Of a stretch of DNA of 50,445 nt, positions 2,078 to 44,300 are shown piece by piece. The notes beneath the pieces were generated by a model. That model saw nothing but the letters and a program-made list of their open reading frames with translations. It did not search any database and was not told the origin of the DNA. The translations under genes and the position numbers were made by a program. The stretch lies in IMG/VR virus record IMGVR_UViG_3300037258_000061, positions 1 through 50,445 of that record; one strand, 5' to 3'. This DNA is from a virus. Lineage: Duplodnaviria > Caudoviricetes. Each line of letters begins with the position of its first letter. Position 1 is the first letter of the stretch.

Positions 2078-3034
2078 CTACGGCCCCATCGACCCCCAGG
2101 TTCCCTGCCACTGTGGGCATCCAGCACTAACTCTGAAACGAACCTTCTGCTTAATTGCATCCGTATCGAAGTCGTTGTCGAATGTGGTAGTTTCACGCTC
2201 ACGATTGTAGAATGTGAGAGCCGTGTCCATCTTATCTGCAGTCAAGAACCAACTAGAAGCAGACGTAAAGTAATGGCACTGCATAACATCGAGATTCTCA
2301 GGAAGAATAGAGTTGATCTCGTTGTCAGACGTGTACGGTTTGCCCGGTGAGCCAAGAATCTCACGAGCAATGAAGATTAACTCAGGCGGAATCAATAGAT
2401 GCTTCCAGCGTGATGCAGTTGGAAAGCCTCTATTATCAACCATACGATTTGCCTGGTTGATTGCAAGTTGTAGACCAGCGATTGATAGATCAATATCAGT
2501 CTCTGGACGGTTGGGATAAGTACCAGCAGCAGTGATGATATTGCCCAAACCCGGAGCAATAGCAGTTGCCTGTGAACCACCAAGCAATGCGTGCTGATTG
2601 TAGAACAGCGGATTGCCGTCAAACGTTACGACGTTAGAGCTGAAGCCCTGATTAAAGATGCTCCAAGCAATAACTTCGCGTGTGAAACGAGAGCTGCGAG
2701 CAAGTGTACGAGGACCTTGACGAATAAGACCATACTGGTCATCATCCATCAGTTCCTTTGATGTACGAATGCCCAAGCTATAAGTCAAGTGCAGGAAACG
2801 ATACGAACCGCCCTGAATCATAGCTGTATACTGCGTGGGTGTATTCTCAGGTTTCTCTTGAAGCGGCCCAACACCTGCCATTTCAAGTTCCTGTTCATAC
2901 ATTGCGTCAGATCCCTTTACGTTAAACACCGTAGGGTACTCTTCTGCGCGCTGTTCCATGTCTTGCCAGTCTTTGTAAATCTTCTTAAGACCGGGAGCCA
3001 TGAGCTGATAAAACATTCCGCGTACTTGGCTCAT
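2078..3034 (-). CDS. Major capsid protein (HK97 fold, Mu gpT-like family)
   Basis: 318 aa; N-terminal LMAPGLKKIY, ELMDDDQYG, DGNPLF, LLIPPEL and C-terminal WQGTWGS resemble this capsid family; lies downstream of scaffold and decoration genes. Confidence 0.88.
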   Translation of the reverse strand: MSQVRGMFYQLMAPGLKKIYKDWQDMEQRAEEYPTVFNVKGSDAMYEQELEMAGVGPLQEKPENTPTQYTAMIQGGSYRFLHLTYSLGIRTSKELMDDDQYGLIRQGPRTLARSSRFTREVIAWSIFNQGFSSNVVTFDGNPLFYNQHALLGGSQATAIAPGLGNIITAAGTYPNRPETDIDLSIAGLQLAINQANRMVDNRGFPTASRWKHLLIPPELIFIAREILGSPGKPYTSDNEINSILPENLDVMQCHYFTSASSWFLTADKMDTALTFYNRERETTTFDNDFDTDAIKQKVRFRVSAGCPQWQGTWGSMGP

Positions 3035-5397: not shown

Positions 5398-5760
5398 TTA
5401 ATTTGACTTAGATGGTTCAGTTTTAATACCTTCTTGCGCTCTCATTGCTTTTAGTTGTTCTTCTTTAAAATCATGATGTTTCTTTGCAGTTTGAGGGAGA
5501 AGTATAGCTTGATCTACTTCATGTAAAGCTCCGCGATGCTTATTTATCTCATCTAGTGTGAGATTGCTATTGTACAGTATCTCCTGTATTAGGAATACCC
5601 TGCGGAAGTTGAGGTATTCCAGAATTGCCTGCATTTCCACCGAATGGTATTGAACCGCCAGCGCTTGGTGATTGCTGATTAGTTTGGGCCACGGGTTTTG
5701 TAGTTCCACCACTCCCGCCGCTCCGGATACCTGCTGAGTTGACTCCTGCTTCGAGTTCAT
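5398..5760 (-). CDS. Hypothetical protein downstream of and overlapping the portal gene
   Basis: 120 aa; AGGAG RBS; small helical protein in the usual post-portal position; overlaps the portal's low-complexity tail. Confidence 0.65.
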   Translation of the reverse strand: MNSKQESTQQVSGAAGVVELQNPWPKLISNHQALAVQYHSVEMQAILEYLNFRRVFLIQEILYNSNLTLDEINKHRGALHEVDQAILLPQTAKKHHDFKEEQLKAMRAQEGIKTEPSKSN

Positions 5761-7579
5761 TTTGCTCCTGTTCTAACAACTGTTGTACTCCTTGAGGCAA
5801 TGGTGCAAGTCTTTCTACGTCTGGATGCTCAAAGTTACGTAGAATTCTACGAACTAAAGCATTTTTTGCTATCAAACACTCCATCATATATTGTTTTAAC
5901 TCAGGTGGCATTTGCTGAGTTGTAACAATGGCTGCTACAGTTTGCTGATCTGACTGTTGAATCCGTTCTAGAGTTGAAAGCAGAAGCATATCATTCTGCT
6001 TTTCAAGTTCTTTGTTGTTGCTTGCTGTAGCTGGCTTAATCAGAAGACCAAGCTTTCCATTCTTATAGTTTTCAAGTGCTGCTTTAAGAATTTGAGCTTT
6101 ATCACCATAGCTACGCAGTCGATTACCACTAATACCATAAGTTGCGTATTGTGTAAGAATCTTTCGACCCATACGAACGTGAGCCGAGCGCATATCACTC
6201 ATGCGCAAGTTGTTCCGATTGTTAGAAGCCTGCATTGCTATTGCAGTTCCCTGCGCTGAATAGTTACCACGCTTCGGATTTACAATTCCACCTCCTGCAC
6301 CACCCACTGCAGGATCAACACCTGATCTATCTTTCGCAAGAGAGAGTGTAAGCATCTCATCTTCAGATGTAATAGTTGCGCCGGGCGCTCCAAGAGTCAA
6401 TAGTTCTAGATCATCCTTCGGTGCTGGGATAACTGCGCCAGGATAAATTTGAATTACAGATGATAAGGAACTCCCTGTGTTAATTCTGACAACCCCAGTA
6501 TTTGCGAGGTCACGATTATCAACACGTTGATTATGAATTCTCGAAACTTCTCGTTGGTACATCTCCAACATTTCCATGAATCCATAACCATAGTACTGGT
6601 CGTCATCATAGGCAAGTTTCGCATCTTCAAATGGAACCTCATTCTTTGGATAGGGATTAAATATACCACCCAAAAGAGATTTAGACTTATGATGCCAGTG
6701 AGCAATGATTCTGTACTTCTTACCACCCATCCACCAAGAGAACCAGCACTCGTGAAAGTCCCACTCACCTCCAACATTACTCCAATTGTTGTTCATTCCC
6801 TTAGATTCTTCTTGCATGGCCTGCATATAGTCAGGGCCTTGTCTATCAGGACCAAGATCCAAGAGCGTTTGCAACTTTGCTTTGTCGTAAATATGAAGGT
6901 CTTCGTTCTTTTCGATCAAATCACGTAGCTGTGGCTTCTTGTATGGCACAATATGAGCCATGAAGTCACAATTACGCAAGTTTGAGGTCTGGGGATCGAC
7001 TAGAAAACGATTGAGTGGCACATTCTCAGGACGAGGATTATCAAAAATCGTCTCTGTTTCGAATCTTGATGAACCTTCCCCGCCTGTGTACACTTGTTCT
7101 TGAGTAAAGAGCCAGGGAAATTTAGCAATTCCAGTGCCATAACGACCTGCGGAGGCAAATACAACTTCCTCGACGCGGTATAAATCTAATTCCATCGGAT
7201 CGAGAGATACATCTGACATGAAAGCTTCGATCATAGCTCTCTGATCGTCTCCAACACCCTTCTTCCAATCACCAAGGATCGAAGCTACAAATAGCTGATC
7301 GCTTTGGTAGATCGACATTATTCGAGATAGCAGCTCGTCAGAATGAGTAGCGGCTAACTGTACGACTAAGTTGCTTGCCATAGGCCAAGGAAATGTTTTT
7401 TCCTTAACTTCTGGTATACCTTTGTAAGTCTTAACCCACTTCGGTAAAAGGTCTTCACGCAGATTCTGAGTTTTCGCCATCAAATACGAAATCTGATTGA
7501 AGATGTAACTCTTCAAATCATCCAACTCTTGCGTATTTGAAATCTCTTTTTCTAGCGAAAGAACTTTAGGAAAGGGCAT
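5567..7579 (-). CDS. Portal protein (podovirus/P22-like)
   Basis: 670 aa downstream of TerL; PWPMASNLVV, YGTGIAK, YYGYGFMEML and IYPGAVIP motifs. Confidence 0.88.
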   Translation of the reverse strand: MPFPKVLSLEKEISNTQELDDLKSYIFNQISYLMAKTQNLREDLLPKWVKTYKGIPEVKEKTFPWPMASNLVVQLAATHSDELLSRIMSIYQSDQLFVASILGDWKKGVGDDQRAMIEAFMSDVSLDPMELDLYRVEEVVFASAGRYGTGIAKFPWLFTQEQVYTGGEGSSRFETETIFDNPRPENVPLNRFLVDPQTSNLRNCDFMAHIVPYKKPQLRDLIEKNEDLHIYDKAKLQTLLDLGPDRQGPDYMQAMQEESKGMNNNWSNVGGEWDFHECWFSWWMGGKKYRIIAHWHHKSKSLLGGIFNPYPKNEVPFEDAKLAYDDDQYYGYGFMEMLEMYQREVSRIHNQRVDNRDLANTGVVRINTGSSLSSVIQIYPGAVIPAPKDDLELLTLGAPGATITSEDEMLTLSLAKDRSGVDPAVGGAGGGIVNPKRGNYSAQGTAIAMQASNNRNNLRMSDMRSAHVRMGRKILTQYATYGISGNRLRSYGDKAQILKAALENYKNGKLGLLIKPATASNNKELEKQNDMLLLSTLERIQQSDQQTVAAIVTTQQMPPELKQYMMECLIAKNALVRRILRNFEHPDVERLAPLPQGVQQLLEQEQNELEAGVNSAGIRSGGSGGTTKPVAQTNQQSPSAGGSIPFGGNAGNSGIPQLPQGIPNTGDTVQ

Positions 7580-8570: not shown

Positions 8571-10451
8571 CTAGTTTTGAATCCCCTGCATAGCTCTCTG
8601 GAAGTTAAGAGCACGCTGCTGAAATGCTGCAGCCATTTCTTTATCTGAAACCGCATTAAACTTCCAGACTTGAGGCCCATAACCAAGCGTGTCCAGAACA
8701 TCTATCAAACCGTTTTTGTTTCCGTAAGCTTCATACTCTTCAAGGAAGATTCTGGAAGAGTTATCGTCACTGCGCACAAAGAACTGCCCGCGATTGTAAA
8801 TAGGTTGCATTGACTCAATGCGAGTTTTCTTAGCATCCTCTTTATTGTCATACTTTAAATCCTTGATCTTGATATGCTGAATCTCGGGCATCTTTTCAGC
8901 ATTTACTTTTTTGAAGTATTCAAGGTGGTATTTGAGATATTTCTGTGCACCAACTGTTTCAAGCCAGATTTCGTTGAGTCTCCACTGGACTGCTTTACGA
9001 AACATGACATCGACGAACTCTGCAGGATCGGTTGACTTTGCCCACACGTCAAGTAGGTAGATAAAATTAGTTGATTGGTTGACCCCGGTAACAGTGATAG
9101 CATGTCTGCAACGACCTTTTTTGCCTGAGTGATTCGGATCAACTATCATGTACCGATCAAGTGTAGTTGGATATACATCTTTCTTGACCGGCATCCCTTC
9201 TTTAACTTCGTGCTTAATAATTACACGATAGGTCTTCTGAAGAGTTGATGCAACTTCCCTCGTCGGTCCAACTAAATGATGGTGAGGAAGAACTCCACCT
9301 GTCTGCGCGCTATAGTCTTTCTCGAAGTGGAAGTGCCCAAGGTCTTTAACTTCAAACTTACATAGCTCGGGATTGATAGGAAAGTTAAGGAACTGACACG
9401 AGAATAGATACGGTCCAAGTCTTTTTTTCCAGCGAGCAAGTTTCTCAACTGTGAAAGCTTCAGGGAAGATAGGTGTGCCATAAGGATGTAAGTCGCAACA
9501 TCCTCCCAACGCGGAATGGGTAATAAACTTAAAGTAGGGTTCATTCTCTCGAACCCAACTGTTAAGGTCTTTGAAGCTCCATCTGTTTCCGACGATGATT
9601 TCATTGTTATCTCTTCCACCGTTTCCTGCATGACTATCAAATGCTCCTACAAGAAGTCTGTGATAGTCAATCGTATCATTCATTACAACTTCAGATTTTA
9701 AAGCTTTCCGTCCAACCAGATCATCTTGAACAACATCATCGTAATGCCTAGATTGAAGAGCAGCGCCAACGCCAATAAGATCAAAAGTCCCTTCGCCGTG
9801 CTGCCTGCCTTTCGCAGTTCGTTTCTGATGAAGAGACTCGTTAGTCCAGGTACATGATGCGTCAGGAATAATTTCGGGGAAGATATACTTGAAGAGATCG
9901 TTTGATTCGTAGTGGTTTTTGAGTTTAGTCCCAAGCTTAATAGCATTGTTTTGAGTCTCCGATGCGAGCAATACACGCACATCTTGATCGTGTGCGCGAT
10001 GCATCCAAGCTATAAATGTATCTCCGTAGCCCAACTTTCTCATCAACTCTTCATCTTTTTCTAAGAATGGAAGAGCCCTAAATATGGGAAATGCCTGGCT
10101 AAAGATTGTAGATTTATAGTGGTCGCGGGGGATTTCAATACATTCTTTAAGCCCATCCTTCATCACGCAGGCGCACATATTAAAGTGCAAGTTCTTCGTG
10201 ATATCTGGATTTGTTTGAAGCCGATCAAAACCTAAAACGTATCGTGCGAGATAAAAGAGATTTGCTAGACAGTTGAGTCGAATAGCAACTCGCTTCGATT
10301 CTCCTGTCAAATCTTGCGTGCGAAGAATTGTCCAGCTATTGATGATTTCTTGTGAAACATAAACTCCACCAAGTTCATCGACGTAGTAATCTTGATGACG
10401 ATTTGCTTCGTCTATAACAGCTTCGATTACGCGCTGGTCAAGTATCTCCAA
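8571..10451 (-). CDS. terL: Terminase large subunit
   Basis: Walker A variant IPRDHYKST, Walker B VVQDDLVG, coupling motif IVGNRW, nuclease motifs IVDP, WLETVG and DVLDTLGY. Confidence 0.93.
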   Translation of the reverse strand: MEILDQRVIEAVIDEANRHQDYYVDELGGVYVSQEIINSWTILRTQDLTGESKRVAIRLNCLANLFYLARYVLGFDRLQTNPDITKNLHFNMCACVMKDGLKECIEIPRDHYKSTIFSQAFPIFRALPFLEKDEELMRKLGYGDTFIAWMHRAHDQDVRVLLASETQNNAIKLGTKLKNHYESNDLFKYIFPEIIPDASCTWTNESLHQKRTAKGRQHGEGTFDLIGVGAALQSRHYDDVVQDDLVGRKALKSEVVMNDTIDYHRLLVGAFDSHAGNGGRDNNEIIVGNRWSFKDLNSWVRENEPYFKFITHSALGGCCDLHPYGTPIFPEAFTVEKLARWKKRLGPYLFSCQFLNFPINPELCKFEVKDLGHFHFEKDYSAQTGGVLPHHHLVGPTREVASTLQKTYRVIIKHEVKEGMPVKKDVYPTTLDRYMIVDPNHSGKKGRCRHAITVTGVNQSTNFIYLLDVWAKSTDPAEFVDVMFRKAVQWRLNEIWLETVGAQKYLKYHLEYFKKVNAEKMPEIQHIKIKDLKYDNKEDAKKTRIESMQPIYNRGQFFVRSDDNSSRIFLEEYEAYGNKNGLIDVLDTLGYGPQVWKFNAVSDKEMAAAFQQRALNFQRAMQGIQN

Positions 10452-17226: not shown

Positions 17227-18441
17227 ATGACAAAGAACGCTAACAATGACGTTGCTATGATTGCGTTAAAATGCCAGGGATTAGGATTTCCTGTCTTTTA
17301 CAAACGTAGCGAAACAGGTCCACGTGTAACTACACACTTCTTTACGCAGCAAATGGGATCATCTGCACCACTTAACAAAGTTATAAATAAAGCTGAAGAT
17401 ATCGCATTCGCGTGCGGAGTTCCATCTGTAATGATAACTCGTGTATTAAACGAGATTGCATTTCAAGTCCCGCTTGATCCTGAAGATGTGAAGCTGATTC
17501 CATTCGATGCAGGTATTCATAACTTGATGCTCGAAGCTGTTAAAACTCAACAGCTACCCATAGTTATGGGTCAAACAGTGCAGGGGCAGAACTTCACAGT
17601 AGATTTAGTAGAGCAACCCCACTTACTCATAGCTGGATCAACGGGTGGTGGTAAATCTGTATTTCAGGGCTCAGTTGTATGCGGCTTGCTCCTAGCTAAA
17701 TCTCCCGCTGAATTAGAGATGTATCTAGTCGATACCAAACAACTAGATTTGCCTCTATTCAAAGGTGCAGCGCAAGTTAAGAATATAGTTGATAAGATTG
17801 AGAAAGTTCACGATCTAATCGACAATATGATTCTCAACGTAAGACGGCGCACTGAGAGAATGAAAGGCATAGCCAGGAATATAGCTGAGTATAATGCGCT
17901 GCAAGGTACTTTTATAAATCAGCATCTAGCGCCACCTGCTATCAAGTATAAAGTGGTAGTAATTGACGAACTGGCAGATGTTATTTCACTCGACAAAGAC
18001 TTAGCTGTAAAAGAAGCGGGTGAGATTGAAGCTGGACTGCGCAGCGAGAAACGTACACGCATTGTTAATAAACTTCAGACACTAACTCAAATCTCGCGCG
18101 CATCTGGTATTCACGTTATCGCGGCTACTCAGCGCCCGAGTGTTAAACTTATGTCGGGAGATATCAAAGCTAACTTTCCGATGCGGCTTACTTTCAGACT
18201 CCCAACTTCTGCAGACTCTCGCGTGATATTAGGTGAGGGCGGCGCAGAGAATCTTCTTGGCAAGGGAGATTATCTCTACCAGACTTTTGATATGCCATCC
18301 CCTGTAAGATCGCACGGCGCATATGTAAGTACAACGGACATCGCAAGGATTGTAGATCAATCTCAGATGATAAGGGAGAGTTATGAACAACTCAGAGCAA
18401 CAGCCGATGATGTTAAAGCCGAAACTGAAACTGAAGTATAG
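17227..18441 (+). CDS. FtsK/SpoIIIE-family ATPase (alpha and beta domains only)
   Basis: PHLLIAGSTGGGKS, LVDTK, VVVIDELAD, RASGIHVIAATQRPS, IKANFPMR, GAENLLGKGD. Confidence 0.95.
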   Translation: MTKNANNDVAMIALKCQGLGFPVFYKRSETGPRVTTHFFTQQMGSSAPLNKVINKAEDIAFACGVPSVMITRVLNEIAFQVPLDPEDVKLIPFDAGIHNLMLEAVKTQQLPIVMGQTVQGQNFTVDLVEQPHLLIAGSTGGGKSVFQGSVVCGLLLAKSPAELEMYLVDTKQLDLPLFKGAAQVKNIVDKIEKVHDLIDNMILNVRRRTERMKGIARNIAEYNALQGTFINQHLAPPAIKYKVVVIDELADVISLDKDLAVKEAGEIEAGLRSEKRTRIVNKLQTLTQISRASGIHVIAATQRPSVKLMSGDIKANFPMRLTFRLPTSADSRVILGEGGAENLLGKGDYLYQTFDMPSPVRSHGAYVSTTDIARIVDQSQMIRESYEQLRATADDVKAETETEV

Positions 18442-25569: not shown

Positions 25570-25886
25570 GTATTCTTAGAAAATCTGTTGACAATCAACC
25601 GTTGTATAAGATTAGACCGGGACAGATAGGTGAAAGAATTAAATTATTTCCCGGCATGGTTTTTCCTGGGGAGGTAGAACTTCTTAACATACCTGAACCA
25701 CATAAACATTGCTTTAATTCTGAAGTAGGAATTGTATTTGGTTCTAGTATTTGGTGGATTTATGATCCAAAACAAAGATTGATGGCCACCCATACTAGAA
25801 TTGCAGGTTTGCTTTGTTCCTGCGGCAGTGTTCTAATGCTTGATAACCCTGACGAGAAAAATGGCATATATCAAACCTCAAGGTAG
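25566..25886 (+). CDS. Hypothetical protein (HKHC...CSCG)
   Basis: GTG 25566 overlaps the upstream stop; GGGAG RBS. Confidence 0.55.
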   Translation: MSILRKSVDNQPLYKIRPGQIGERIKLFPGMVFPGEVELLNIPEPHKHCFNSEVGIVFGSSIWWIYDPKQRLMATHTRIAGLLCSCGSVLMLDNPDEKNGIYQTSR

Positions 25887-26991
25887 CCCCACTGCAAAAG
25901 TGTGGGTAGTTGTAGAGCAACCGTATCCTCAAGATGCGCAAGCGGGTTACGTCTGGTCTGCGGGATATGGGCGCATGTTTAACTCTATGATGCAGGCCGT
26001 AGGTATACGAGACTACTATGTATTACCACGCCGTCCTGATCTAGATCATCCGGATACCTATACCATAATCGAGACTGATATTAACCAATATCAACCACCA
26101 ATCATTATTCCTATCGAGGAAGCTGGAACATTTTTCTGTCGTGAATTGATTAAGAATGAATTTTCAAAGCGTAAACTCTCTCAAGGAGAGTCTGAGATAT
26201 CAAAGTACGCTGGGTCGATTTTAACATCGCCCTTTTTTAATTACCCACACTACATTATACCAACGCTTGCCCCCGATACTGTGATGAAACAGTATAAGTT
26301 AAAGGATATTGTAACTTACCTCGATTTGGGAAAGGTATCCGATGAACTTACATATTTCACCACCAATGGAACTCTCCAGCCGCTACCAGCGCGCACTCTT
26401 AAATATAACATTACGGAGTTTGACGAACTTATCGGATACCTTGAAACGTTTAGCTCCCACTCCATTTTATCGAATGATATTGAAACTATCTATCCAAAGA
26501 ATAAAAACTCCCAATATTGGGGTCATCCAGGTTTGCCAACTTGCGTTGGCCTCGCTACTTCTAAAAACTTTGGTATATCTTTTGAACTCTTCCAAGGTGA
26601 CGATAAACTTGGAATCAAGAGAACTGCACAACTCTGGAGAAAACTTCAAAGCGTATTCGACCGTGTCGATCAATTAGGACAGAACTTTTTTAACTTTGAT
26701 CTTCCACGTTACGAGATGTTAGGTTTTCGCATTGATAGATTTAGATGTCACGATACACTAATTCGCCAGCATATATTGTGGCCAGAGTTAGAAAAATCGC
26801 TGCAGTTTATGACACGTCAGTACACTCGTGAACCTTATTACAAAGATGAAGGACACGGTTGGTCATTTAAAGATATGCGTAGACTTAAACGCTACAATTG
26901 TCTTGACGTATGTGTAACAATGGAAGTCTTTGAGGCACAGCAAAAAGAGTTTGAGAAACGCCCATACCTACTAGGAGAAAAAACAGCATGA
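25861..26991 (+). CDS. Uracil-DNA-glycosylase-like domain fused to DnaQ-type 3'-5' exonuclease (N-terminal half of a split PolA)
   Basis: UDG family-4-like N-terminus (PQGSPTAKVWVVVEQP...GRMFNSMMQAVGI); ExoI DIET, ExoII QNFFNFD, HDTL, ExoIII YNCLD. Confidence 0.85.
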   Translation: MAYIKPQGSPTAKVWVVVEQPYPQDAQAGYVWSAGYGRMFNSMMQAVGIRDYYVLPRRPDLDHPDTYTIIETDINQYQPPIIIPIEEAGTFFCRELIKNEFSKRKLSQGESEISKYAGSILTSPFFNYPHYIIPTLAPDTVMKQYKLKDIVTYLDLGKVSDELTYFTTNGTLQPLPARTLKYNITEFDELIGYLETFSSHSILSNDIETIYPKNKNSQYWGHPGLPTCVGLATSKNFGISFELFQGDDKLGIKRTAQLWRKLQSVFDRVDQLGQNFFNFDLPRYEMLGFRIDRFRCHDTLIRQHILWPELEKSLQFMTRQYTREPYYKDEGHGWSFKDMRRLKRYNCLDVCVTMEVFEAQQKEFEKRPYLLGEKTA

Positions 26992-27755
26992 CAACTACAC
27001 CATCCGGTATCTTTCTAGATACCATGAATAACAAGTATAACATTCCCGGCGCAGTTCCGATTCCGCCGCAACCAGTTGCACCACTTATTCCAGCTACAGC
27101 TACCACTGTAGCTAATATATGTTCACTTGCTGGCTGGAAGATGGAGAAAGATTCTGGAACTCCAGGAACTGCAAAAAATATTACAATGACTTATAACGCT
27201 ACTACCAAAGCCTGTCTATTTTCAGCTAATCAGACTGGTAAGGGTGGCGTTCGTTGGTCGCGGACTATTGCAACAGGTGTGCCTGATACCGTAGCAAATT
27301 ACGTCTACGATATTACGTATGAATTTCCTGATCCTATGCAGCAAGCTTGCGTTGAGATGGATATCAATCATGTTGACTCTAAGGGAGATACCTATCTTCT
27401 TTGTGTTCAGGCATCCGAATACTCTGACTCCTACGAGTATACTCTGCTTAAAGCTGCAGGGAGTTACGGTTGGAATCCTTCCACCATTAAAGTAAATCCT
27501 ACACTTTGGCCTAAGAATACTCCAAAGCACATTCGTATCTTCACGCAGCGGAATCTAGCTAACGGTAAAGTTGTATATGTGGGAGTTGAAGAGGATGCAG
27601 TTTATAATCCATTTGCAGCTACTTGCACTGGTGTTAGCGATTCTCCTATGGGTTGGACTAAACAAATAATTCTGCCCAACTTTCAACTCGACGGGGCAAA
27701 TGCCAGTGGCCTCATGCAGTGTAACGTACTTGCGTTTGATATCATCTATTGGTAA
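26988..27755 (+). CDS. Beta-sandwich (concanavalin/polysaccharide-lyase-like) protein
   Basis: NYVYDI...EMDINH...W...HIRI...NFQLDG pattern; ATGA overlap with the exonuclease gene. Confidence 0.55.
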   Translation: MTTTPSGIFLDTMNNKYNIPGAVPIPPQPVAPLIPATATTVANICSLAGWKMEKDSGTPGTAKNITMTYNATTKACLFSANQTGKGGVRWSRTIATGVPDTVANYVYDITYEFPDPMQQACVEMDINHVDSKGDTYLLCVQASEYSDSYEYTLLKAAGSYGWNPSTIKVNPTLWPKNTPKHIRIFTQRNLANGKVVYVGVEEDAVYNPFAATCTGVSDSPMGWTKQIILPNFQLDGANASGLMQCNVLAFDIIYW

Positions 27756-27763
27756 AACGGTTT

Positions 27764-27943
27764 ATGAAAAAAGAAGAGTTTGACAAGCAACGTGAATCTC
27801 TGTACCGAGAGCTACTTTCAGCTCTCGGTACAATTTCACGTCATCCTACGGTACAGGCGCATCCAATATTGCAGGATTGCGCTGTAGCTATTGCTAAGAA
27901 CTATCGCAGTCTTAACCAGATCATTGATGAGGTTGTGCGATGA
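27764..27943 (+). CDS. Small hypothetical protein
   Basis: ORF 27749-27943, first ATG at 27764. Confidence 0.55.
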   Translation: MKKEEFDKQRESLYRELLSALGTISRHPTVQAHPILQDCAVAIAKNYRSLNQIIDEVVR

Positions 27944-28092
27944 GTCAAGAAAGAGATATAAATCTTAAACTCTCAATCTATGAACTTGTTATGGTTCTTG
28001 AACGAATCATGAAAAAAGATACTAGTTTATCATCAGCAACTTCATATAGTATTGTTGAAGAAGCAAGAAAGTTTGCTCGCAAAGATGATTGA
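27940..28092 (+). CDS. Small hypothetical protein, 50 aa (not in the ORF track)
   Basis: GAGG RBS, ATGA overlap; MSQERDINLKLSIYELVMVLERIMKKDTSLSSATSYSIVEEARKFARKDD. Confidence 0.55.
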   Translation: MSQERDINLKLSIYELVMVLERIMKKDTSLSSATSYSIVEEARKFARKDD

Positions 28093-29575
28093 ACCCCGCA
28101 TAACTTACGACTATGAGCGAAAGCTCCAAGCTGTCTATAATGAGATAGCTAACAGAGGTATACGTGTCGATGAAACAAGACTTAAAGAAGCTAAAGTTTT
28201 TGTTGATCGAGAAATCCAGAGAAATTTGGCGATTGCTTCTTCTCAGTGGAATATCAAACTTTTTGTTGGTGTGGAGAATGATCCCAACAAAGGTAAAAAG
28301 AAGGGTGATCCCACACTCATTGAATCACAGAATCTTGGTAGTACTTCTGGAGAAAAGAGTTTCCTTAATCTTCTCAAAACACTGGGCTACACAGTTCCAA
28401 AAATAGCTAAACGCAATAGCGAAGGAGAGTATGAGACTAACTATTCGACGGGAGAACTCGCTCTGCAACGAATCTTACGTGATAACCAGTTTGGATACCC
28501 AACTGGTGATCCAGCGATTAAAGCGGTACTTGCTATACGTGAACTTGCTAAGCTCAGATCTTCCTATCTCAACGCAAATTTCTATAGAGATGTTTCATCA
28601 AACTTGTTCTTTCTCAGCCTCTATAATGCAGCAGGAACTCTTACAGGACGTAGATCATCGAGAAAACATACTTTCGGTTTTGGAAACAATGGTCAGAACC
28701 ACCCAAAACATTCTAGAATTGCCGAGCAGTGGAGAAGATGTCTAGTAGCTAGACCAGGAAATATCTTCTTAATGGTCGATCAGAAGTCTGCAGAGGAATG
28801 GCCTGTCTGCGCTCTATCTCAAAATCATCTTGGAATTGAGCAGATGACTAAAGGTATTAACCGCCACATCTGGCGTGCGTCATTTATCTTTAACATCGCA
28901 GAAGGTGCTCGCAGCAAGAAAGAATGGAAGGAATCGATCGAGTATTATCTGGGAAAGAAGACCGGACATGCAAATAACTATAACATGCAGCCACCTAGAA
29001 TGTCTGAGTCTCTTATTCAAGAAGGACATTATGTTAGCGTTGATGCGTGTGCAGGGATGCTTGCGCGGCTTAATAGTTTGGAGCCTAACATACGAGGTGT
29101 TTTCCATAAATGGGTGCGCGATACTATTAACCATTGCAGAGTTCTCAAAACTCCGTTCGGGCGTGAAAGACAATTTCTCGGATTGCGTCCTAACGATGCG
29201 AACAATAAGATATTTAATGAAGCATTCGCTTTCGTACCGCAGTCGTCCGTTGGCGATAATACTGGTTTTGCAGTTGCTCATATCGAAAACAGTGATCTTG
29301 ATCCAGTCTGTCGCTATATTGTACAAGAAGGCCACGATTCGATCGTTCAAGACATCCCGGACAACCTTACGTGCCTTGATATTGGTCTTTCTAATGCTGT
29401 CGCAGCCTTTGATAGAAAAATGCGATTTGACAATGGAATCGAAGTTCAAGTCCCTGTGGAAGCGGAAATTGGCTACGATTTTAACACTACCGTAACTGTG
29501 GACGATTTGTCCTATGAAGGTTTGCGTATCGCAAAGCAAAAACTGCTCGAAGAGATAAATAAGAAAGCTGCCTAA
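28085..29575 (+). CDS. polA: DNA polymerase family A, polymerase domain only
   Basis: GIRVD, TGRRSS, NGQNHP, motif A DQKSAE, motif B KKTGHANNY, TPFGRER, PQSS, motif C HDS. Confidence 0.92.
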   Translation: MIEPRITYDYERKLQAVYNEIANRGIRVDETRLKEAKVFVDREIQRNLAIASSQWNIKLFVGVENDPNKGKKKGDPTLIESQNLGSTSGEKSFLNLLKTLGYTVPKIAKRNSEGEYETNYSTGELALQRILRDNQFGYPTGDPAIKAVLAIRELAKLRSSYLNANFYRDVSSNLFFLSLYNAAGTLTGRRSSRKHTFGFGNNGQNHPKHSRIAEQWRRCLVARPGNIFLMVDQKSAEEWPVCALSQNHLGIEQMTKGINRHIWRASFIFNIAEGARSKKEWKESIEYYLGKKTGHANNYNMQPPRMSESLIQEGHYVSVDACAGMLARLNSLEPNIRGVFHKWVRDTINHCRVLKTPFGRERQFLGLRPNDANNKIFNEAFAFVPQSSVGDNTGFAVAHIENSDLDPVCRYIVQEGHDSIVQDIPDNLTCLDIGLSNAVAAFDRKMRFDNGIEVQVPVEAEIGYDFNTTVTVDDLSYEGLRIAKQKLLEEINKKAA

Positions 29576-30894
29576 TGCCCCACAGAGCACTCTCAAAGAA
29601 CTGGATACTTGCGTATAATGAAGCTATATCTAAAATCTCGGAAGCGCCGGGACAGTATAACATCTGGGCTGCTATTGCAGTTGTATCTGCTGTGTTGAAG
29701 AACCACGTAAGAATGGCACGCGGCCCATATGTCGTAAATCCTAACCAATACATAATTCTGGTAGGTCCACCCGGCGTTGGTAAAGGCACTGCGATTCATC
29801 CTGCGTTTGATATTCCAAAGAAACTAGGTTTAATTAACACAATCTCTGATCGTGTAACTGCGCAGAAGATAGTTGAGAGGTTATCCAATGGATTTGACGC
29901 GCCTCCAAAGATTATATACGGTACTACAAACGGTCATGGACCCTTACCAACTAATACTGTCGCAGGAGGACATCTCTTTAATACTTCAAGCACTCCAACT
30001 ATTGTTGCTACAAGAGAATCAGCAGCAACAATTATGTCCACCGAACTCCAAACCCTCCTCTCCAGTTCAGAATGGATGACGCAATTTCTCTGCGATGCTT
30101 GGGATAGAAAAGACTTTGAATATGATACCAAGAATAAAGGAACTCACATAGTTAAAGATATGTGTGTTTCTATGATCGGTGCTTGTGTTCCAGCCTATAT
30201 TCAGAGCATTAATAAGAGTACGGAAGCTGCAGTCAATGGTGGATTCACAGCTCGTGCAGTGTTTGTGTATGCAGATAAAAAAGCCCAAGATATCGTATGG
30301 CCCAGGAATCTAGAAGAAACTATGGGGGCAGAGTTTATCAAGAAGCTTGAAGAAGATTTAGTTTCCATCTCAAATCTAGAGGGCGAATTTACATTCAGTC
30401 CCGAGGCTAAAAATCTCTTTGAGACGTTTTACAAAACTTCACCTATAGTTCGCCAGCACGAAGCAGATTCAGAAGTCATGCTATACTTCAAATCACGCGT
30501 GCATGTTCACTTTTTCAAAGTGGCTATGGCATTTAGCGCTGCACGAGATGACTCTCGAATAATAGATCGGATTGATACTCTAGTATCTATTGATCTATTA
30601 AAACAGATTCAACAGAATCTAGATCGTGCATTTAGAGGAGTTGGCAACTCTCCTCTTGCAGATGCTACCCAAAAAGTTCTAGGTTATATTGAACGCATGG
30701 GCGCAGCTAATCGCAGACAGATTCTGAAACACAACTACATGCACGTCACTAATGACGATCTATCCAGGGTTCTATTCACGCTCTGTGAGATGGGAACTGT
30801 AAGAGAAGATTCAATCGGTGGCGAAAAAATCTTTGTCTACTGTGAAACTCAAAAGACAGTAGATACAAACGTCAAACAAATCAATAAGACATAG
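29575..30894 (+). CDS. DUF3987-like P-loop NTPase (putative replicative helicase) with C-terminal winged helix
   Basis: SEAP...W, PNQYIILVGPPGVGKG, GGFTAR; translationally coupled to polA. Confidence 0.8.
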   Translation: MPHRALSKNWILAYNEAISKISEAPGQYNIWAAIAVVSAVLKNHVRMARGPYVVNPNQYIILVGPPGVGKGTAIHPAFDIPKKLGLINTISDRVTAQKIVERLSNGFDAPPKIIYGTTNGHGPLPTNTVAGGHLFNTSSTPTIVATRESAATIMSTELQTLLSSSEWMTQFLCDAWDRKDFEYDTKNKGTHIVKDMCVSMIGACVPAYIQSINKSTEAAVNGGFTARAVFVYADKKAQDIVWPRNLEETMGAEFIKKLEEDLVSISNLEGEFTFSPEAKNLFETFYKTSPIVRQHEADSEVMLYFKSRVHVHFFKVAMAFSAARDDSRIIDRIDTLVSIDLLKQIQQNLDRAFRGVGNSPLADATQKVLGYIERMGAANRRQILKHNYMHVTNDDLSRVLFTLCEMGTVREDSIGGEKIFVYCETQKTVDTNVKQINKT

Positions 30895-30903
30895 GGAGAA
30901 GAG

Positions 30904-31689
30904 ATGCCGTCAAATCCACCATTTAATGATGATTTTGAAGTTCAACCTGCAGATGCAGATTTGTGGGCCAAAGTTGAAGAAGATAAAAAGCAAGAAAAGA
31001 TTGACGAAGGTGGTGTGCAGCCAGAAGTTGGTCCTATAGCTACTTTCAAGCAAGTAGAAAATGCAATGGTGAATGTCGAAGCGGGCGAAGATAACATCGT
31101 CGGTTTAATTGAGTTAGGTGTTGGTCTGGAGGCAGTTGGTGACAATATCATTGTGCTTATTGATAACTATCGCTCTGGTTATGAATGCACTGCTTGCAAA
31201 GGGACGGGTAAATTACGGAGGTTTGTTCGGTGTGTCTGCGATCCGGATATTCCAGATTCTGATCTGGACTTCCCTCGCGGTACTCGCAATCGCTTTAAGG
31301 CTGTCTGTGAGGCTTGCTCTGGCGAATATCTCACCGTGCGGATAGATGACGTAGTTACTTGCCATAAATGCAATGGTAGAGGAGCAACTCTAGTTATCCC
31401 CGAAAATGCTCAATCTCTGCCAACTACAGGAATTATTCTAAGTATGGGTCCAGAGGTTACTCGCAAGGGAATTGCTATAAACAAGCGAGTTATCTGCACT
31501 CCGCACGCAGGTGTATTTCTTCCGATGAAGGGAAATATTCCTGTGAAAGTTTATCGCCAGCATGAACCTCTCTGCAATATGTATAACATTAAAAAAGATG
31601 GAACTGCAGATAAGGAAAAACCTGGCGAATTAGTTACAAATCAATTCGTTGAACATGATACACCGCTTGGCACACAACACAATGCTTAG
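30904..31689 (+). CDS. GroES/cpn10-like co-chaperonin with inserted DnaJ-type zinc finger
   Basis: [10 protein letters not shown] and [24 protein letters not shown] match the GroES pattern LKPLGDRVLV / [31 protein letters not shown]...CHKCNGRG lies between them. Confidence 0.75.
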   Translation: [261 protein letters not shown]

Positions 31690-32299
31690 TAACGAAGTTC
31701 TCTACTTAGAAAAGGGTGGGAAGCCTATGTCACTTCAACAAACAGATGTGGGAAATATTCAACAAAGAGGTACTTCAGTACTTGCGAATCCTCAACTCGT
31801 CTCATTCGACATTGCATATAAACAACTAATCGAACGCTGGGAAGATCCACATCTCACAGGTAAAATTACTCATGATGCAGGTGGTGCAACTAAATATGGA
31901 ATTTCACAGAATGCTTATCCATCTTTAGATATTTCTACTATTACTGCCTCAACTGCAAAAGAGATAACTTTTAAAGATTATTGGATGTATTCTAAGTGGA
32001 ATATATCAAAATTACAAGCTGCCTATCAACCTCTTGCAAATAAGTTATTTCAGTTTGGATTTAATGTGGGAGTTGGTACAGTAATTCAAATTGCAAATAT
32101 GTGTGTATTCTCGGCTGAGATAGGCGATCAAATACCAAAGTTAGGTGATCCCTTAGATATTACAAGCCGTAGCCCAGAAACATTAAGTGATTTGAGACTA
32201 ATGATGGTTGCAGCTCAACTTTCAAGATATGTAGTTGATTATCATGGTTTAAGTCGCGTTCCGCACTCCCTAATGGACCGCGCTCTTTGTATAGAGTAA
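31682..32299 (+). CDS. Endolysin, glycoside hydrolase family 108-like
   Basis: WE...HDAGGATKYGIS...DYW...LFQFGFNVGVG; start at 31682 or 31727. Confidence 0.8.
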   Translation: MLSNEVLYLEKGGKPMSLQQTDVGNIQQRGTSVLANPQLVSFDIAYKQLIERWEDPHLTGKITHDAGGATKYGISQNAYPSLDISTITASTAKEITFKDYWMYSKWNISKLQAAYQPLANKLFQFGFNVGVGTVIQIANMCVFSAEIGDQIPKLGDPLDITSRSPETLSDLRLMMVAAQLSRYVVDYHGLSRVPHSLMDRALCIE

Positions 32300-37617: not shown

Positions 37618-38011
37618 CGTATTCCTCCCAGTTAACTCCAAGTTCACTAGCCATGAATCTTTCAATACGAGTTGCCGTTTGATGCTGCTTAAAATAGGGA
37701 GCGTTTGGATCATCGCCAGGTTCGTCACACTCGCCGTGCATTCCTTTTGCACGTTCGTCTTCAAACTTGATATCAAAATCAGTTACAGCTTGCTCTTCAA
37801 CTCCATCAAGCCAGCAGAGGAGAGCTTCAACTTGTTCATGCACTGATACGAGCAAATTATACTTATAATTACCCATATCGCTAATGCGAATATGAAGAGT
37901 TGTGTAACGCCAAAACCAGTCGCCAACTGTGGGATAACGTTGGCAGCGATGTGCGATGAATCTAATACTAAGTGCAACTAAATCCTTGCGCGAACCTTTT
38001 CTAACTGGCAT
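37595..38011 (-). CDS. HExxE metal-binding protein (putative metallopeptidase/hydrolase)
   Basis: RYPTVGDW...VHEQVEALLC...EPGDDPNAPYFKQHQTATRIE; TAATG coupling with the ATP-grasp gene. Confidence 0.7.
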   Translation of the reverse strand: MPVRKGSRKDLVALSIRFIAHRCQRYPTVGDWFWRYTTLHIRISDMGNYKYNLLVSVHEQVEALLCWLDGVEEQAVTDFDIKFEDERAKGMHGECDEPGDDPNAPYFKQHQTATRIERFMASELGVNWEEYDAAVNAL

Positions 38012-39318
38012 TAGATCCATCCCATCTCTTTGAGTTTGAAAAATCTCTTCATAATACTTTTTTGTAAATCTGTTCGGTGTTGCATGTCAGGAATCTCAAT
38101 CTTTTCAATGCGAGCATCTAATTGAGCGAATGCACCTTGAGGAGTTGCGCTAACTTCAATAGGACAACAAATCAATCCATTGACGCCAGCGCATACTAGT
38201 TCCGCACTCTTGCCCGAGCCCTGCATCATTACATCATAAAAATAGGTCTTCATTAACTCTTCTTCTGAGTTAATATCAATACCTTTAACTGGAATACCTT
38301 TAACTTTAGCTAACCTGATTTCTGTTGGGTAAGGTGGTATAGTGATTCTTGCCGATACGCCATACTCCGCTTTCCACTTTTGTTCAGGAATTCCACCAGT
38401 TGCCACCCGCTTGAGAAGTTCGCCAAAATCACCACCATACATATTAAACAAAGTAGCTGAAGCATCATAGCCGAAACGAGGAGTCCATTCCAGACCATAT
38501 AGTTTTTCCTCCGTTGCTATCGTATTTAGATCGATCATGCCACGATAACCGAGAGCAGAAAGTACCTCACGAGCTTTAGCTAGACCTTCTGTAAATACAC
38601 GCGAGCCAGGATTTAGAGTAAACACTAAATTACCTGAACATCCTGTATTTGGGCCTATTCCGTCATTCATAAACTTTTTTTCTTCTAGTGTGCAATTCAA
38701 GCAGTAGAAGTCATTTCCGTTAAACCATCCTTCTACGGAAACTTCAATACCGGGCTTAAATTCTTGAAGAATGAAGGGAGAACCTTTAGATAGAAGAAAT
38801 AGTTTATCAATATACTCCAGCATATCAGTATCAGAATAGCTAACATAAGTTGTCCCAGCATCCTGATCTTGCCCACCGTTTGGTTTGTAGACGTATCTTT
38901 TTTTGGTTTCCTTGATAAAAGATTTCGCAGTGGATACATCTGTGAACACCTCCCAGGCGGGCACATCTATACCAGCGTTCTCCATCATTTCTATGCCGAA
39001 GAGTCTATCTTCTTCGAGCATTTTGTGAGTTGAACCATCACCGATTGTAGGTGTTTGGTTGGAACTATGATCGGCTTGTCTCTCTCTTCCAGTAAGATCA
39101 AACACTGAGACATCATACTTAGAGTAATCGGGAAATCCGATGTTTTCATCACTCTTCCTGTTGTCATGAAACTTAACAAATGGAGTGGGAGCTATGCCTT
39201 GCATTACATCAGCATATTTGTTCATACTAAGGTAATAGTCTACAGAATGGCCCTGCATTCGCATAACCGCAGCAAACCAAGCACCATAGCCTGCATAACT
39301 TGACAAGGCAATCTTCAT
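38011..39318 (-). CDS. PurD/GARS-like ATP-grasp ligase
   Basis: YVYKP, ILQEFKPGIEVS, EEKKFMNDGIGPNTG, GMIDLN and LEWTPRFG align with PurD ATP-grasp motifs. Confidence 0.88.
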   Translation of the reverse strand: MKIALSSYAGYGAWFAAVMRMQGHSVDYYLSMNKYADVMQGIAPTPFVKFHDNRKSDENIGFPDYSKYDVSVFDLTGRERQADHSSNQTPTIGDGSTHKMLEEDRLFGIEMMENAGIDVPAWEVFTDVSTAKSFIKETKKRYVYKPNGGQDQDAGTTYVSYSDTDMLEYIDKLFLLSKGSPFILQEFKPGIEVSVEGWFNGNDFYCLNCTLEEKKFMNDGIGPNTGCSGNLVFTLNPGSRVFTEGLAKAREVLSALGYRGMIDLNTIATEEKLYGLEWTPRFGYDASATLFNMYGGDFGELLKRVATGGIPEQKWKAEYGVSARITIPPYPTEIRLAKVKGIPVKGIDINSEEELMKTYFYDVMMQGSGKSAELVCAGVNGLICCPIEVSATPQGAFAQLDARIEKIEIPDMQHRTDLQKSIMKRFFKLKEMGWI

Positions 39319-41336: not shown

Positions 41337-44300
41337 TATTTCCGCCCTTCGGAATCTTCAAGAATTTTCTTGATCTTAGCATGGGCTTTAAAGAAATCCT
41401 CATCTGTCTTTGAATTCTTTCTAAGACTCTGAAGTTTAGCCAATTGCTTGAGTCCCTCATCGTATTCATCTGCGAAATTCTTTTTGTAAGGCCCCATAGT
41501 GGTCTTATAGTTCTGTATTTCTGCGAGCGCTGCTTCTTTTTCGGCTTCACGCTGCCACCTAGTGCGGCCTACAAATGAAGTGCTAATTGTAGAACGGAAT
41601 ACGTTACCTTCAGTATCAAGTCTTCCAGACATTGCCAGCATATCTATATGGGCAGATAAACGCTTGGCTTCGTCTTTCCATTCAGCTGTGGTTCCGTTAG
41701 GGTCCGCATCGTGGAGAACTTTTTTAATTCTGGATACGATAGGCACTGGAATATCTTCACTATGATGCAATCCCCAAAGAAGCATATCATGGGGCTTCTC
41801 GAATTTAATTCGATTTCCCATTTGATCCCCGATTTCCTGGACAAAATCAGTATCGTCCATTCCGTCCAGAAACGATGCGAGAGATTTATTCTGCTTCTTA
41901 GCACCGGAGGTAAAGGGATTTGTAAAGTGCGACAGCGCAGATTGCTTAAACGATACGTAACTCTTAGGTAAGTCTTCATGGACTGCTCCCGTCAACTTAT
42001 GGATATTTGCTATATCAATAGTGTTTCCTGCAGGATGTTCATTGGCCAACCACTTAGGGTCAGCTCTGCGCAGTGCAATCTGACTATCGATCTGAGTCTT
42101 TATAGTTGTGGCTAAGTCTTTAATTTCACTATCTGATTTCTCAGGAAAGTACTGTCTCAACTTTCGCATTGAGTTATCATGCGAGCGAAGTCTAGCTTTA
42201 GTTTCAGGACCACCAAAACGTTGTGGTTCACTTGAAACTCTATAAAGAGCTTTGTCTGCTTTACTAGCAAACTTAAGATCAAAACTCTCGTCTTTGCGAT
42301 TGTATTTAACGTTGCCAGTATCGCTTAGTTCGTTAAAGACCTCATCCTCTTTAGATTTCGACGCCTTTGGAGTTTCTTTCCTTGGACTTCCCAACTCAGC
42401 ATTTTTGTCAGCCAGAACCTTTTCGTTTCGCCCAACTCGTTCTGTAGCTCCCTGAGTAGATTTGACTCCGTTTTCGACAGCAATTGAATCTTGCTCTTCT
42501 TTGACGACCGCATCGACAATCTTCGCGCCATATTTTTGCTCCAAGGTCTGAAATGTTTGTGCTAACTGAGGATTAACTTTTACATCTTCTGAAAGCTTTG
42601 TTGTAACTTCATGCTGTGCTACATCTGGAACATGAATTGGCATTTCAGTTGTTGCTTCTGCAGCCATTTTAGCCATGTTAATTCTAACACGACGGCGCTG
42701 CAACTGTGATAGTTGATTCAGAGGTTTGCCATAAAGCTGACGTGCCATAGCATTCTGCGAGATTTTCTCAGCAGTTACTGCAGCATGTTTAATAGGATCA
42801 GCTTGATGGGCAGCTTCCATTTGTGCTGCATAAATCTTATCTTGCTCTGGATGAGCTTTATGCTCATCTGTATGAACAATTGGATTACCTGCAGCATCCG
42901 TACCAACTATATCATGTTCAATCTCAAAAGCAGCTTGGTCAGCTACAGTTTCATGGAATACTTTACCCCCGACAGCGATATTATTTGCAGCGACTCTCTT
43001 CATAGCTGCGCGAGATATAGGCTTGACTAGTGTTCCAAGACCTTCACCTGCTGCACCTAAGCCCATAAATGTAAGCATAGCGCCTGCGCGATCACCTTGG
43101 GGAGTTTCAGAGAAAATATCTCCTATATATGCAGAAGCGGCTTCTTTAAGTCTGCGACCTGCAAATTGACCAGTTTTGCTAGTTGCTAATCTGCGAGTAA
43201 AGTTGGCCGCTTTACCAATTGAACCAGTTGATTCAACAGCTTTTCCTGCACCAAGCAAGGCTTCACCAGTAGCCCCGAGTGCTTCTAAAGGACCATTGAT
43301 GGCTTCATACAAGGGAAGTTGAACAATTGCCTCTCCAACAAAACTACCAGCTTTCTCTGTGTAGTTTTTAGTTGGATGAGTATCTAGCCAAAATGTCTGA
43401 CGATCTATAACATCCTGAGATAACTTGAGAGCTGCGTCAGCGACTCTGGCATCATTATCAGATCGTTCGGTTGCCCAGGTATGAAGAGCGCTACCCGGGA
43501 AGAAATTGGCAACCCCGAGTATCTTTCTATCGACTTTAATTCCCGCCATAAATATAGAATGGACAAGGTGTCCGTTAAGCTGAATTGCACTAGCTTCGGT
43601 GTGTGCCACTCCGGCTTGGAAGTCTGAGAATGCGTCTTTGTTTGTAGCCTCACTATACTCATAGAAGTCTGAGGTTTTAAACGAGCCCTTCTGAACTTGG
43701 CCGACCCAAAGATCCTTCGGGGGAGGTTCTATTTTGGAGTTTTTGTAAATTGGTACGACATACTTATCGTAGTAATTATCGAGAACGTGGGTTTTTTGGT
43801 CACTAGGCAAGGCAGCAAAACGAGGATTTTTAATGATACGTTCGGCTTTTGCATAGGTAGCGGCCTGCCGATCTAACGGATGCGTGAAGTTAAAAGGATT
43901 CTTATTCGCAGGATTTTCGACTGAAGCAATTCTGCTCTTGATTAACTGTTGGCGATAATCCCGAGGAATGTTTTGCTCTTCACCAGTTTTCTCATCTTCT
44001 AAATTAGTTGGAGCAAAGTGATGCTCACCAGTTTTAGCTGCTGGTTTAGCTGCAGGTTGAGCTTGCTGTCTGGATGGACGTGGAGATACAACAGGTTTTT
44101 CAGCACCTGCATCCTTCGCGTATGAATGTCCTTTTTTCATCCAATCTACAGGAGTTGCTAACTTAGCTAATGCTGGATCAGTTCCTTCAGTTCCAGTTGA
44201 AGCTGTAGGTATAGTGGAATCTGACATAGTATCAAACGTTCCAGTAACTTGCTGTAAATTAACCGGCGGTAAAGGCGCGCGCGGAGTTGTATTGATAGTA

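Follow-up and report, generated by a model that had tools for sequence, protein, structure and literature searches.

Open reading frame (ORF) 30904..31689, on the plus strand of a 50,445-base viral genome (IMG/VR record IMGVR_UViG_3300037258_000061, Caudoviricetes; the whole stretch is hereafter called the window), raises the question of whether a phage has built a folded zinc module into the GroEL-binding loop of a GroES-type co-chaperonin, and what such a protein would do. An earlier note, made from the sequence alone, read the ORF as a GroES homologue carrying a DnaJ cysteine-rich zinc finger in its mobile loop. Our analysis bears this architecture out. On the evidence below, we consider it probable that the protein assembles into a ring like that of GroES and, in the manner of T4 gp31, serves as a cap for host GroEL, to the benefit of phage proteins, probably those of the head.

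The window is the complete viral record (CheckV completeness 100%). The ORF opens with ATG and encodes 261 aa; the ATG lies 4 nt downstream of a Shine-Dalgarno-like GGGAGA site that overlaps, by its first base, the end of the stop codon of the DUF3987 gene upstream (end of that ORF, 30894). All the protein strings on which the earlier note relied are found in the translation: the GroES beta1 string at residues 75-87, the cysteine motifs CTACKGTG (95-102), CVC (110-112), CEACSG (135-140), and CHKCNGRG (153-160), and the string at which the GroES chain was said to resume at residues 161-183. The insert, put there at about 70 aa, corresponds to the 73 residues that separate D87 from A161. The cysteines of the 261-aa protein are residues 95, 98, 110, 112, 135, 138, 153, 156, 198, and 224. 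An acidic N-terminal extension had also been noted, and residues 1-44 do contain 12 Asp/Glu vs. 4 Lys/Arg.

Searches with family profiles identified the segments flanking the insert as Cpn10/GroES. A profile of 34 relatives searched against the PDB gave 17 matches, of which the top ten were all Cpn10 or Cpn20 chains (best 1.1e-7), and hhalign comparison of a 45-member profile with bacterial GroES gave a probability of 97.2% (E 2.9e-11), with query residues 161-225 aligned to GroES residues 22-92. The Pfam Cpn10 model (PF00166, cut-off 21.1 bits) was passed by nine of ten diverse members, with scores up to 38.2 bits, and NCBIfam GroES models matched 35 of 45 members. PHROG matches among the 45 were to phrog_3188, “co-chaperonin GroES” (20 members), and phrog_931, “head morphogenesis” (six members), and all seven BFVD matches at E ≤ 1e-3 were viral co-chaperonins.

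A predicted structure built on 140 relatives (model 2; pLDDT 84.6, pTM 0.71) points the same way. Model residues 74-227 aligned with GroES (8wuc_a) at Z 11.3 and rmsd 2.6, with 87 positions aligned of the 94-residue chain, followed by Hsp10 (Z 10.3), T4 gp31 (1g31_A, Z 9.3), and Cpn20 (Z 8.6); the next fold, the ADH-type GroES-like domain, reached 6.3 at most. In a comparison with all PDB chains the top 16 entries were all GroES, Cpn10, or gp31, with scores of no more than 6.6 thereafter, and GroEL-bound gp31 (2cgt_O) aligned over 72 residues (Z 9.9, rmsd 1.8). The structural alignment with GroES begins at model residue 74, equivalent to GroES residue 2, so it includes the N-terminal strand before the loop. 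The earlier note would have given up its reading had the flanks not folded as Cpn10; profiles and structural comparison both return that fold. Judged by homology, predicted fold, and loop motif, the protein belongs to the Cpn10 superfamily.

Within the structural alignment, 87 of the 154 residues spanned are aligned with GroES and about 67 are skipped, and the hhalign match starts again at residue 161, which together place the insert in the mobile loop, within its N-terminal arm, after beta1 and ahead of the tip. The insertion in the mobile loop claimed by the earlier note is thereby located right before the conserved GroES-like hydrophobic tip. The insert comprises about 66 residues with eight cysteines. 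A profile of the module cut out on its own (35 sequences aligned) matched DnaJ and BSD2 domains in the PDB at values from 6.1e-7 to 3.7e-4 (BSD2, 6.1e-7; EMB2737, 2.8e-5; BSD2 6ekb, 3.4e-5; DNAJA3, 3.7e-4; also DNAJA2), scores that cysteine-rich repeats can inflate. The match to Escherichia coli DnaJ (1exk, 3.1e-5) runs end to end with the four motifs in register, supporting the assignment of the insert to the DnaJ-type cysteine-rich module. Pfam DnaJ_CXXCXGXG (PF00684) matched the window protein at E 6.3e-4 and 20.4 bits, under the cut-off of 32.7 bits, which none of ten diverse members passed (best 32.1); all 34 members of alignment A1 matched it at E ≤ 0.1. With the insert alone, the ESM Atlas returned no feature match of use, and every structure row from it had a TM score below 0.5; a few of these rows were DnaJ clusters, a result that serves as a lead only.

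The module shares with the DnaJ cysteine-rich domain (PF00684, 1exk) and with BSD2 (6ekb, 9ci1) the CxxCxGxG repeats and the arrangement of outer and inner cysteine pairs as a hairpin. The DnaJ cysteine-rich domain is likewise inserted into a beta domain. With its two ends brought together at the predicted outer zinc site, such a hairpin can be accommodated in a loop. The eight cysteines of the window protein stand in the right order, as CxxCxGxG, CxC, CxxCxG, CxxCxGxG; unlike DnaJ, it thus has two perfect CxxCxGxG motifs, with CxC as motif 2 and CxxCxG as motif 3. It also differs from DnaJ in having neither a J domain nor a DnaJ C-terminal domain, for which the window protein gave no Pfam match at E ≤ 10. 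By its domain content it is not a J-protein and carries the zinc module only.

The outer cysteines are nearly invariant among the aligned members (C95, C98, and C153 in 140/140, C156 in 139/140), and the rest of the module varies. Four CxxC motifs occur in 77 of the 140 members, three in 34, and the outer two only in 17. Versions with two, four, or six CxxC motifs may be read from the sequence as having one, two, or three zinc sites, which gives 17 one-site members, 111 two-site members (34 of them with CxC as the second motif, as in the window), and 12 with more. A quick tree of the 140 members implies 19 parsimony changes of zinc-site class, a figure of little weight as it has no shuffle control. 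Further CxxC pairs, six in all, were seen in the ORFs L061:5061-5729 and L066:2998-3768 and in protein P0090. The extra pair in L061 falls at the position of the GroES roof hairpin, so that putative zinc knuckles can be accommodated in either of the two loops exposed on the Cpn10 barrel.

The segment directly after the module resembles the GroEL-binding tip of GroES. The consensus is G-[GAS]-x-[LI]-[IV]-[IVL]-P-[DEQ]-x-[AS]-[KQE], the window protein reads G160-A-T-L-V-I-P, and across the 140 members G160 is kept in 123, L/I at position 163 in 133, I/V at 164 in 108, I/V/L at 165 in 113, and P166 in 133. A Gly followed by three small hydrophobics, the pattern used in a survey of viral GroES proteins to recognize a mobile-loop tip (PMC5649160), is present in the window protein. 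On the other side of the module, the linker is conserved, with D87 in 140/140, G92 in 126/140, and E94 in 124/140. By mean pairwise identity the 16-residue tip arm is the most conserved segment, followed by beta1 with its linker (Table 1), the zinc module (36.4%), and the barrel core (31.4%). Alignment gaps show the roof hairpin to be 7-9 residues shorter than in GroES; in gp31 and in RB49 CocO, which are needed for capsid folding, this hairpin is deleted (PMC5649160).

These conservation data bear on a reading in which the protein acts without GroEL, as a holdase or assembly chaperone whose Cpn10 ring is a scaffold displaying seven DnaJ/BSD2-like fingers. Clients are contacted by the DnaJ and BSD2 cysteine-rich domains that the insert matches, conservation is higher in the module than in the barrel core, and versions with two, four, and six CxxC motifs exist, as if size were tuned. 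What such a ring leaves unexplained is that no part of the protein is better conserved than the GroES-type G-x-x-hydrophobic3-P tip and that this tip is kept right after the module in nearly all members. We regard a GroEL-independent holdase as rather unlikely.

Examination of the relatives shows that the layout is widespread. A word-indexed search returned 37 homologues with the pattern, several of them on contigs of 49-51 kb; one is named “co-chaperonin GroES” and one “Zn-ribbon”, and the names of the others are uninformative. Of 105 candidate stretches in an IMG/VR scan, 85 contained a relative. Searched exhaustively with a profile, 1.84 billion cluster representatives (clusters at 50% identity) yielded 107 proteins at a threshold of E ≤ 1e-30 and 221 at the looser one of E ≤ 1e-10, so the family comprises at least 107-221 clusters. 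Lengths range from 103 to 316 aa among the 150 matches listed. The short matches (103-114 aa) were considered as insert-free forms and rejected, as their ORFs start within the zinc module. The recurrence of the pattern in homologues, with its near-invariant outer cysteines, indicates more than chance.

DNA of the window is contained in soil metagenomes of several studies, and the data sets listed as containing it include no RNA data sets. The gene core as carried by contigs of other soil studies has 30-64 differences from the window. Among the substitutions listed inside the ORF, from related strains in independent soil runs, 21 of 28 are at third codon positions; there are 81 further differences besides. 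Judged by these comparisons, ORF 30904-31689 is a real, selected gene. In other soil contigs the N-terminal stretch (about 30900 to 31019/31038) is exchanged for 52-61 unrelated letters between flanks that are about 93-96% identical, a swap that fits the poor occupancy of the acidic extension in our alignments. The N-terminal extension is a strain-variable acidic tail of an otherwise conserved protein. The parts of the gene are collected in Table 1.

Table 1. Segments of the window ORF and its ribosome-binding site, with the basis of each assignment
Feature	Position in window	Strand	Basis
Shine-Dalgarno-like GGGAGA	30894..30899	+	sequence read
Whole ORF, zinc-finger-bearing Cpn10/GroES homologue, 261 aa + stop	30904..31689	+	translation, family searches
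Residues 1-44, acidic N-terminal extension, predicted disordered, strain-variable	30904..31035	+	pI 4.05; pLDDT 52-55; 25-30% occupancy among aligned members
Residues 45-72, additional N-terminal beta strands ahead of the Cpn10 core	31036..31119	+	model 2 strands 45-50, 58-60, 65-68; 13.5% pairwise identity in alignment A3 (weak conservation)
Residues 73-94, GroES N-terminal strands GLEA/NIIVLI (= beta1) and linker D-x-[YF]-[RK]-S-G-Y-E into the zinc module	31120..31185	+	model strands 73-76, 81-86; 43.0% pairwise identity
Residues 95-160, cysteine-rich module of the DnaJ type (eight Cys), with CTAC(KGTG)/CHKC(NGRG) as outer and CVC/CEAC(SG) as inner pair; two zinc ions expected	31186..31383	+	profile matches, Cys conservation, pLDDT 92-96
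Residues 161-176, loop tip and C-terminal arm, equivalent of the GroES “GG-IVL-P...” GroEL-binding tip	31384..31431	+	hhalign start (query 161 = GroES 22); 45.6% identity
Residues 177-228, remaining Cpn10 beta-barrel, roof hairpin shortened	31432..31587	+	alignment gaps; structural alignment as far as model residue 227-228
Residues 229-261 and stop, C-terminal extension (FVExDTPLG), kept only in close relatives	31588..31689	+	42.4% identity in alignment A1 vs. 15.2% in A3; pLDDT 51-70

The genes around the ORF offer two kinds of neighborhood. On the plus strand of the window the order is split DNA polymerase, DUF3987 helicase/primase-like gene, zinc-finger Cpn10 gene, and GH108 endolysin; the Cpn10 gene ends the plus-strand replication block and faces the end of the tail genes. 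The minus strand carries the head genes, namely terminase (8571-10451), portal (5567-7579), and a major head protein of 317 aa (2078-3034); the terminase and portal belong to the same families as those in related loci. Among 80 related loci, the DUF3987 gene is directly upstream in 40, as in the window, while in 28 the large terminase and then the portal follow directly downstream; the terminase is elsewhere in the locus in ten, and two have neither DUF3987 nor terminase.

The first of these neighborhoods raises the idea of a replication accessory factor, in which the Cpn10 fold would have been reused, for example for a loader or DNA-binding subunit, in a protein working with the DUF3987 helicase/primase-like protein. 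The gene does abut the DUF3987 stop downstream of the split polymerase, and the cysteine-rich part (residues 95-160) is basic, with a pI of 8.5. We hold this to be improbable, since in the second neighborhood it is the first gene of the packaging module and has no DUF3987 next to it, the conserved GroES-type tip would be left without a role, and no nucleic-acid-binding family matched significantly.

Several further features of the replication block and of the gene's surroundings were recorded. The family A DNA polymerase of the window (25840-29575, plus strand) is split in two, with its N part at 25840-26991 and its C part at 28052-29575, and the 255-aa ORF between them (26988-27755) has no PHROG match; the same split, seen as two separate matches, occurs in 39-40 of the 80 related loci. 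The GH108-type endolysin (31649-32299, plus strand) comes right after the Cpn10 gene and, with its listed TTG start, overlaps the last 41 bases of that gene; no homologue of it was found in the 80 related loci at E ≤ 1e-5. An FtsK/SpoIIIE-like ATPase (17227-18441, plus strand; phrog_1358, E 1.4e-64) lies in the early/replication block. An ATP-grasp protein (38011-39318, minus strand; GARS_A, 7.2e-10; ATP-grasp_3, 1.7e-6) lies within the tail/structural block, an unusual site for such an enzyme. The window contains no tRNA.

No Cpn60/GroEL is encoded in the complete window record, and GroEL was not matched in the 80 related loci (805 kb) either. Among species genomes (185,579 searched), a relative was encoded in only three of 29 candidate stretches. 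Two bacterial genomes with family members were examined, and each also has a normal groES-groEL operon; the phage copy is thus an addition to the host co-chaperonin and not a replacement. One relative, with the same gene order, lies at about 189-215 kb of a 638 kb contig (G001 contig C2, locus L083) in a gammaproteobacterial metagenome-assembled genome (MAG). An internal TAA interrupts its terminase, the DUF3987 gene of the locus is split, and there is no integrase in the vicinity; either a prophage in decay or a chimeric assembly could account for this copy. A Saccharimonadales host, suggested by a cluster member on a 4.7 kb contig binned with such a MAG, was set aside as too weak to use. Overall, the family is apparently confined to uncultured phages, mostly from soil.

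A phage lid added to a host that has its own could also be a weapon: a GroEL blocker or hijacker, binding as a tight unproductive lid and so disabling the proteostasis of the host or one of its GroEL-dependent responses. A zinc-clamped, pre-formed loop could bind more tightly than a flexible one, which together with the additional nature of the phage copy would suit this role. Against it stand the terminase and portal adjacency in 28 of the 80 loci, which suggests morphogenesis, and the precedents: gp31 and CocO, the Cpn10 homologues known from phages, act productively as co-chaperonins for host GroEL, and many phages need GroEL for their own assembly (PMC5649160). We consider a blocker very unlikely.

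Productive capping of host GroEL by the phage ring accommodates these data better in our estimation. The missing phage GroEL and the loop tip as best-conserved segment make plausible the idea of the earlier note, that host GroEL is reprogrammed by the protein or receives a substrate from it. In the mechanism that we propose, a rigid, zinc-stapled DnaJ-type module would replace the flexible N-terminal arm of the GroEL-binding mobile loop, and the retained hydrophobic tip would dock the ring on host GroEL. Part of the host chaperonin pool would thereby be dedicated to phage proteins, most likely head-assembly proteins as with gp31. The link to head assembly is indirect and draws on the terminase/portal adjacency, on the matches to phrog_931, and on the parallel with gp31 and CocO, including the shortened roof.

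For the role of the module itself, we tentatively prefer a structural clamp that presents a pre-formed tip and a basic surface and so raises affinity or specificity. The outer zinc site would clamp the two loop arms a few residues from the tip, so that the tip is presented pre-formed, and the basic surface of the module could lie against acidic GroEL; with higher affinity or specificity, the phage lid might outcompete host GroES. A second possibility, which we think somewhat unlikely, is that seven fingers on the rim hold a client, by analogy with DnaJ and BSD2. Seven 66-residue modules would add about 50 kDa by our estimate, so they should lie outside the cage or on its rim and not inside it.

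A further reading is a true chimera of Hsp10 and Hsp40, in which seven fingers on the rim would bind one particular protein of the phage, for instance its capsid subunit or another assembly intermediate, and pass it to the host GroEL cage or receive it from there. Substrate selection in cells belongs to GroEL and separate chaperones; in the chimera it would be built into the co-chaperonin, and the two-, four-, and six-CxxC versions would be adaptations to different clients. We regard such a chimera as doubtful.

Several observations weigh against productive capping. The ring, its docking on GroEL, the bound zinc, and the client are all matters that we infer, and a rigid 66-residue module next to the tip could obstruct that docking just as well as promote it. 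The tip tripeptide of some members contains A, H, F, or T, and the order of the loop differs between our two models (pLDDT 57 vs. 91, the latter in model 2). In the window and in half of the related loci the gene directly follows the DUF3987 replication gene and starts within a few bases of its stop. The major head protein is short enough that an enlarged cage is not obviously needed, and in this respect the “bigger cage” rationale for gp31 (PMC5649160) is not obviously applicable here. Finally, the window protein alone scores 13.6 and 14.6 bits with Pfam Cpn10, under the cut-off, has no significant BLASTP similarity to bacterial GroES (E 2.6), and returned nothing relevant with phmmer against the PDB; a first, weaker model gave no Foldseek match in the PDB at E ≤ 0.001. 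A PHROGs search with this protein alone was uninformative too. By itself the window protein is too diverged to prove Cpn10 homology, and the family profiles settle the question.

Comparison with known systems shows what is shared and what is new. Like bacterial GroES (8wuc, 1aon, 4v4o), the window protein has a beta-barrel with the element order N-terminal strands, loop, barrel, and a loop tip of Gly, three hydrophobics, and Pro followed by an “AK..P..G” arm. Unlike GroES, it has the 66-residue eight-cysteine module in place of the N-terminal arm of the mobile loop, a shortened roof, and extensions of about 72 (N-terminal) and 33 (C-terminal) residues, and pairwise similarity is undetectable. 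Because roof and loop differ, it is not a canonical GroES. With T4 gp31 and RB49 CocO (1g31, 2cgt) it shares being phage-encoded, a Cpn10 fold, the lack of a full roof hairpin, and a phage without its own GroEL, and by analogy these would be its closest functional counterparts. The mobile loop of gp31 is lengthened but flexible and metal-free, whereas that of the window protein carries a folded module predicted to bind zinc. Another metal-linked Cpn10 is Helicobacter pylori HspA, which has a nickel-binding His/Cys tail at its C-terminus; there the metal site is that tail and not a folded module within the GroEL-binding loop.

Two leads in named phages were pursued as possible examples of the same layout. 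Cellulophaga phage phi18:3 (L093), a cultured phage, has two Cpn10 genes, at 31108-31362 (84 aa) and 41458-42060 (200 aa, gp096). The latter, an extended Cpn10 just upstream of terminase and portal, occupies the position that the zinc-finger gene has in 28 of the 80 loci; as an instance of the layout, this “cpn10” (a BFVD lead) was rejected for having no cysteine motifs. A “heat shock protein binding” protein of Microcystis phage MACPNOA1 has CxxCxGxG repeats and was rejected for having no Cpn10 core. In 50,697 deposited phage genome records, a set from which records very close to the window may be absent, tblastn with P0001 and with the L047 member gave no match, and with P0038 at E ≤ 1 gave only three weak zinc-finger matches, the MACPNOA1 protein among them, and no family member.

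The earlier note had allowed for the possibility that the architecture was both common and already characterized. Common it is, in uncultured phages; a characterization was not found. A full-text literature search, with subscription-only papers lying outside it, returned no description of a Cpn10 with a zinc finger in the text available. In the available parts of the main viral GroES survey (PMC5649160), zinc, cysteine, and DnaJ are not mentioned; the alignment in its Supplementary Figure 13 could show insert-bearing sequences. HTVC023P-type pelagiphages are described as having “GroES” as a core gene (PMC9599517). Taken together, the architecture is well supported by sequence profiles and a predicted structure, common in uncultured phages, and apparently undescribed in print, and the mechanism is one that we infer.

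The mobile loop of GroES is the textbook example of a flexible binding element, and the affinity and timing of the chaperonin cycle are attributed to its disorder. This phage family appears to have swapped half of that loop for a folded module while keeping the putative GroEL-binding tip under the strongest constraint, and so would offer a natural experiment on altering loop rigidity, lid affinity, and cage geometry. If the protein caps GroEL as we propose, it would represent a second phage route to the takeover of host GroEL, distinct from that of T4 gp31; and should clients indeed bind to the fingers, this would be the first example of a co-chaperonin that selects its own substrates.

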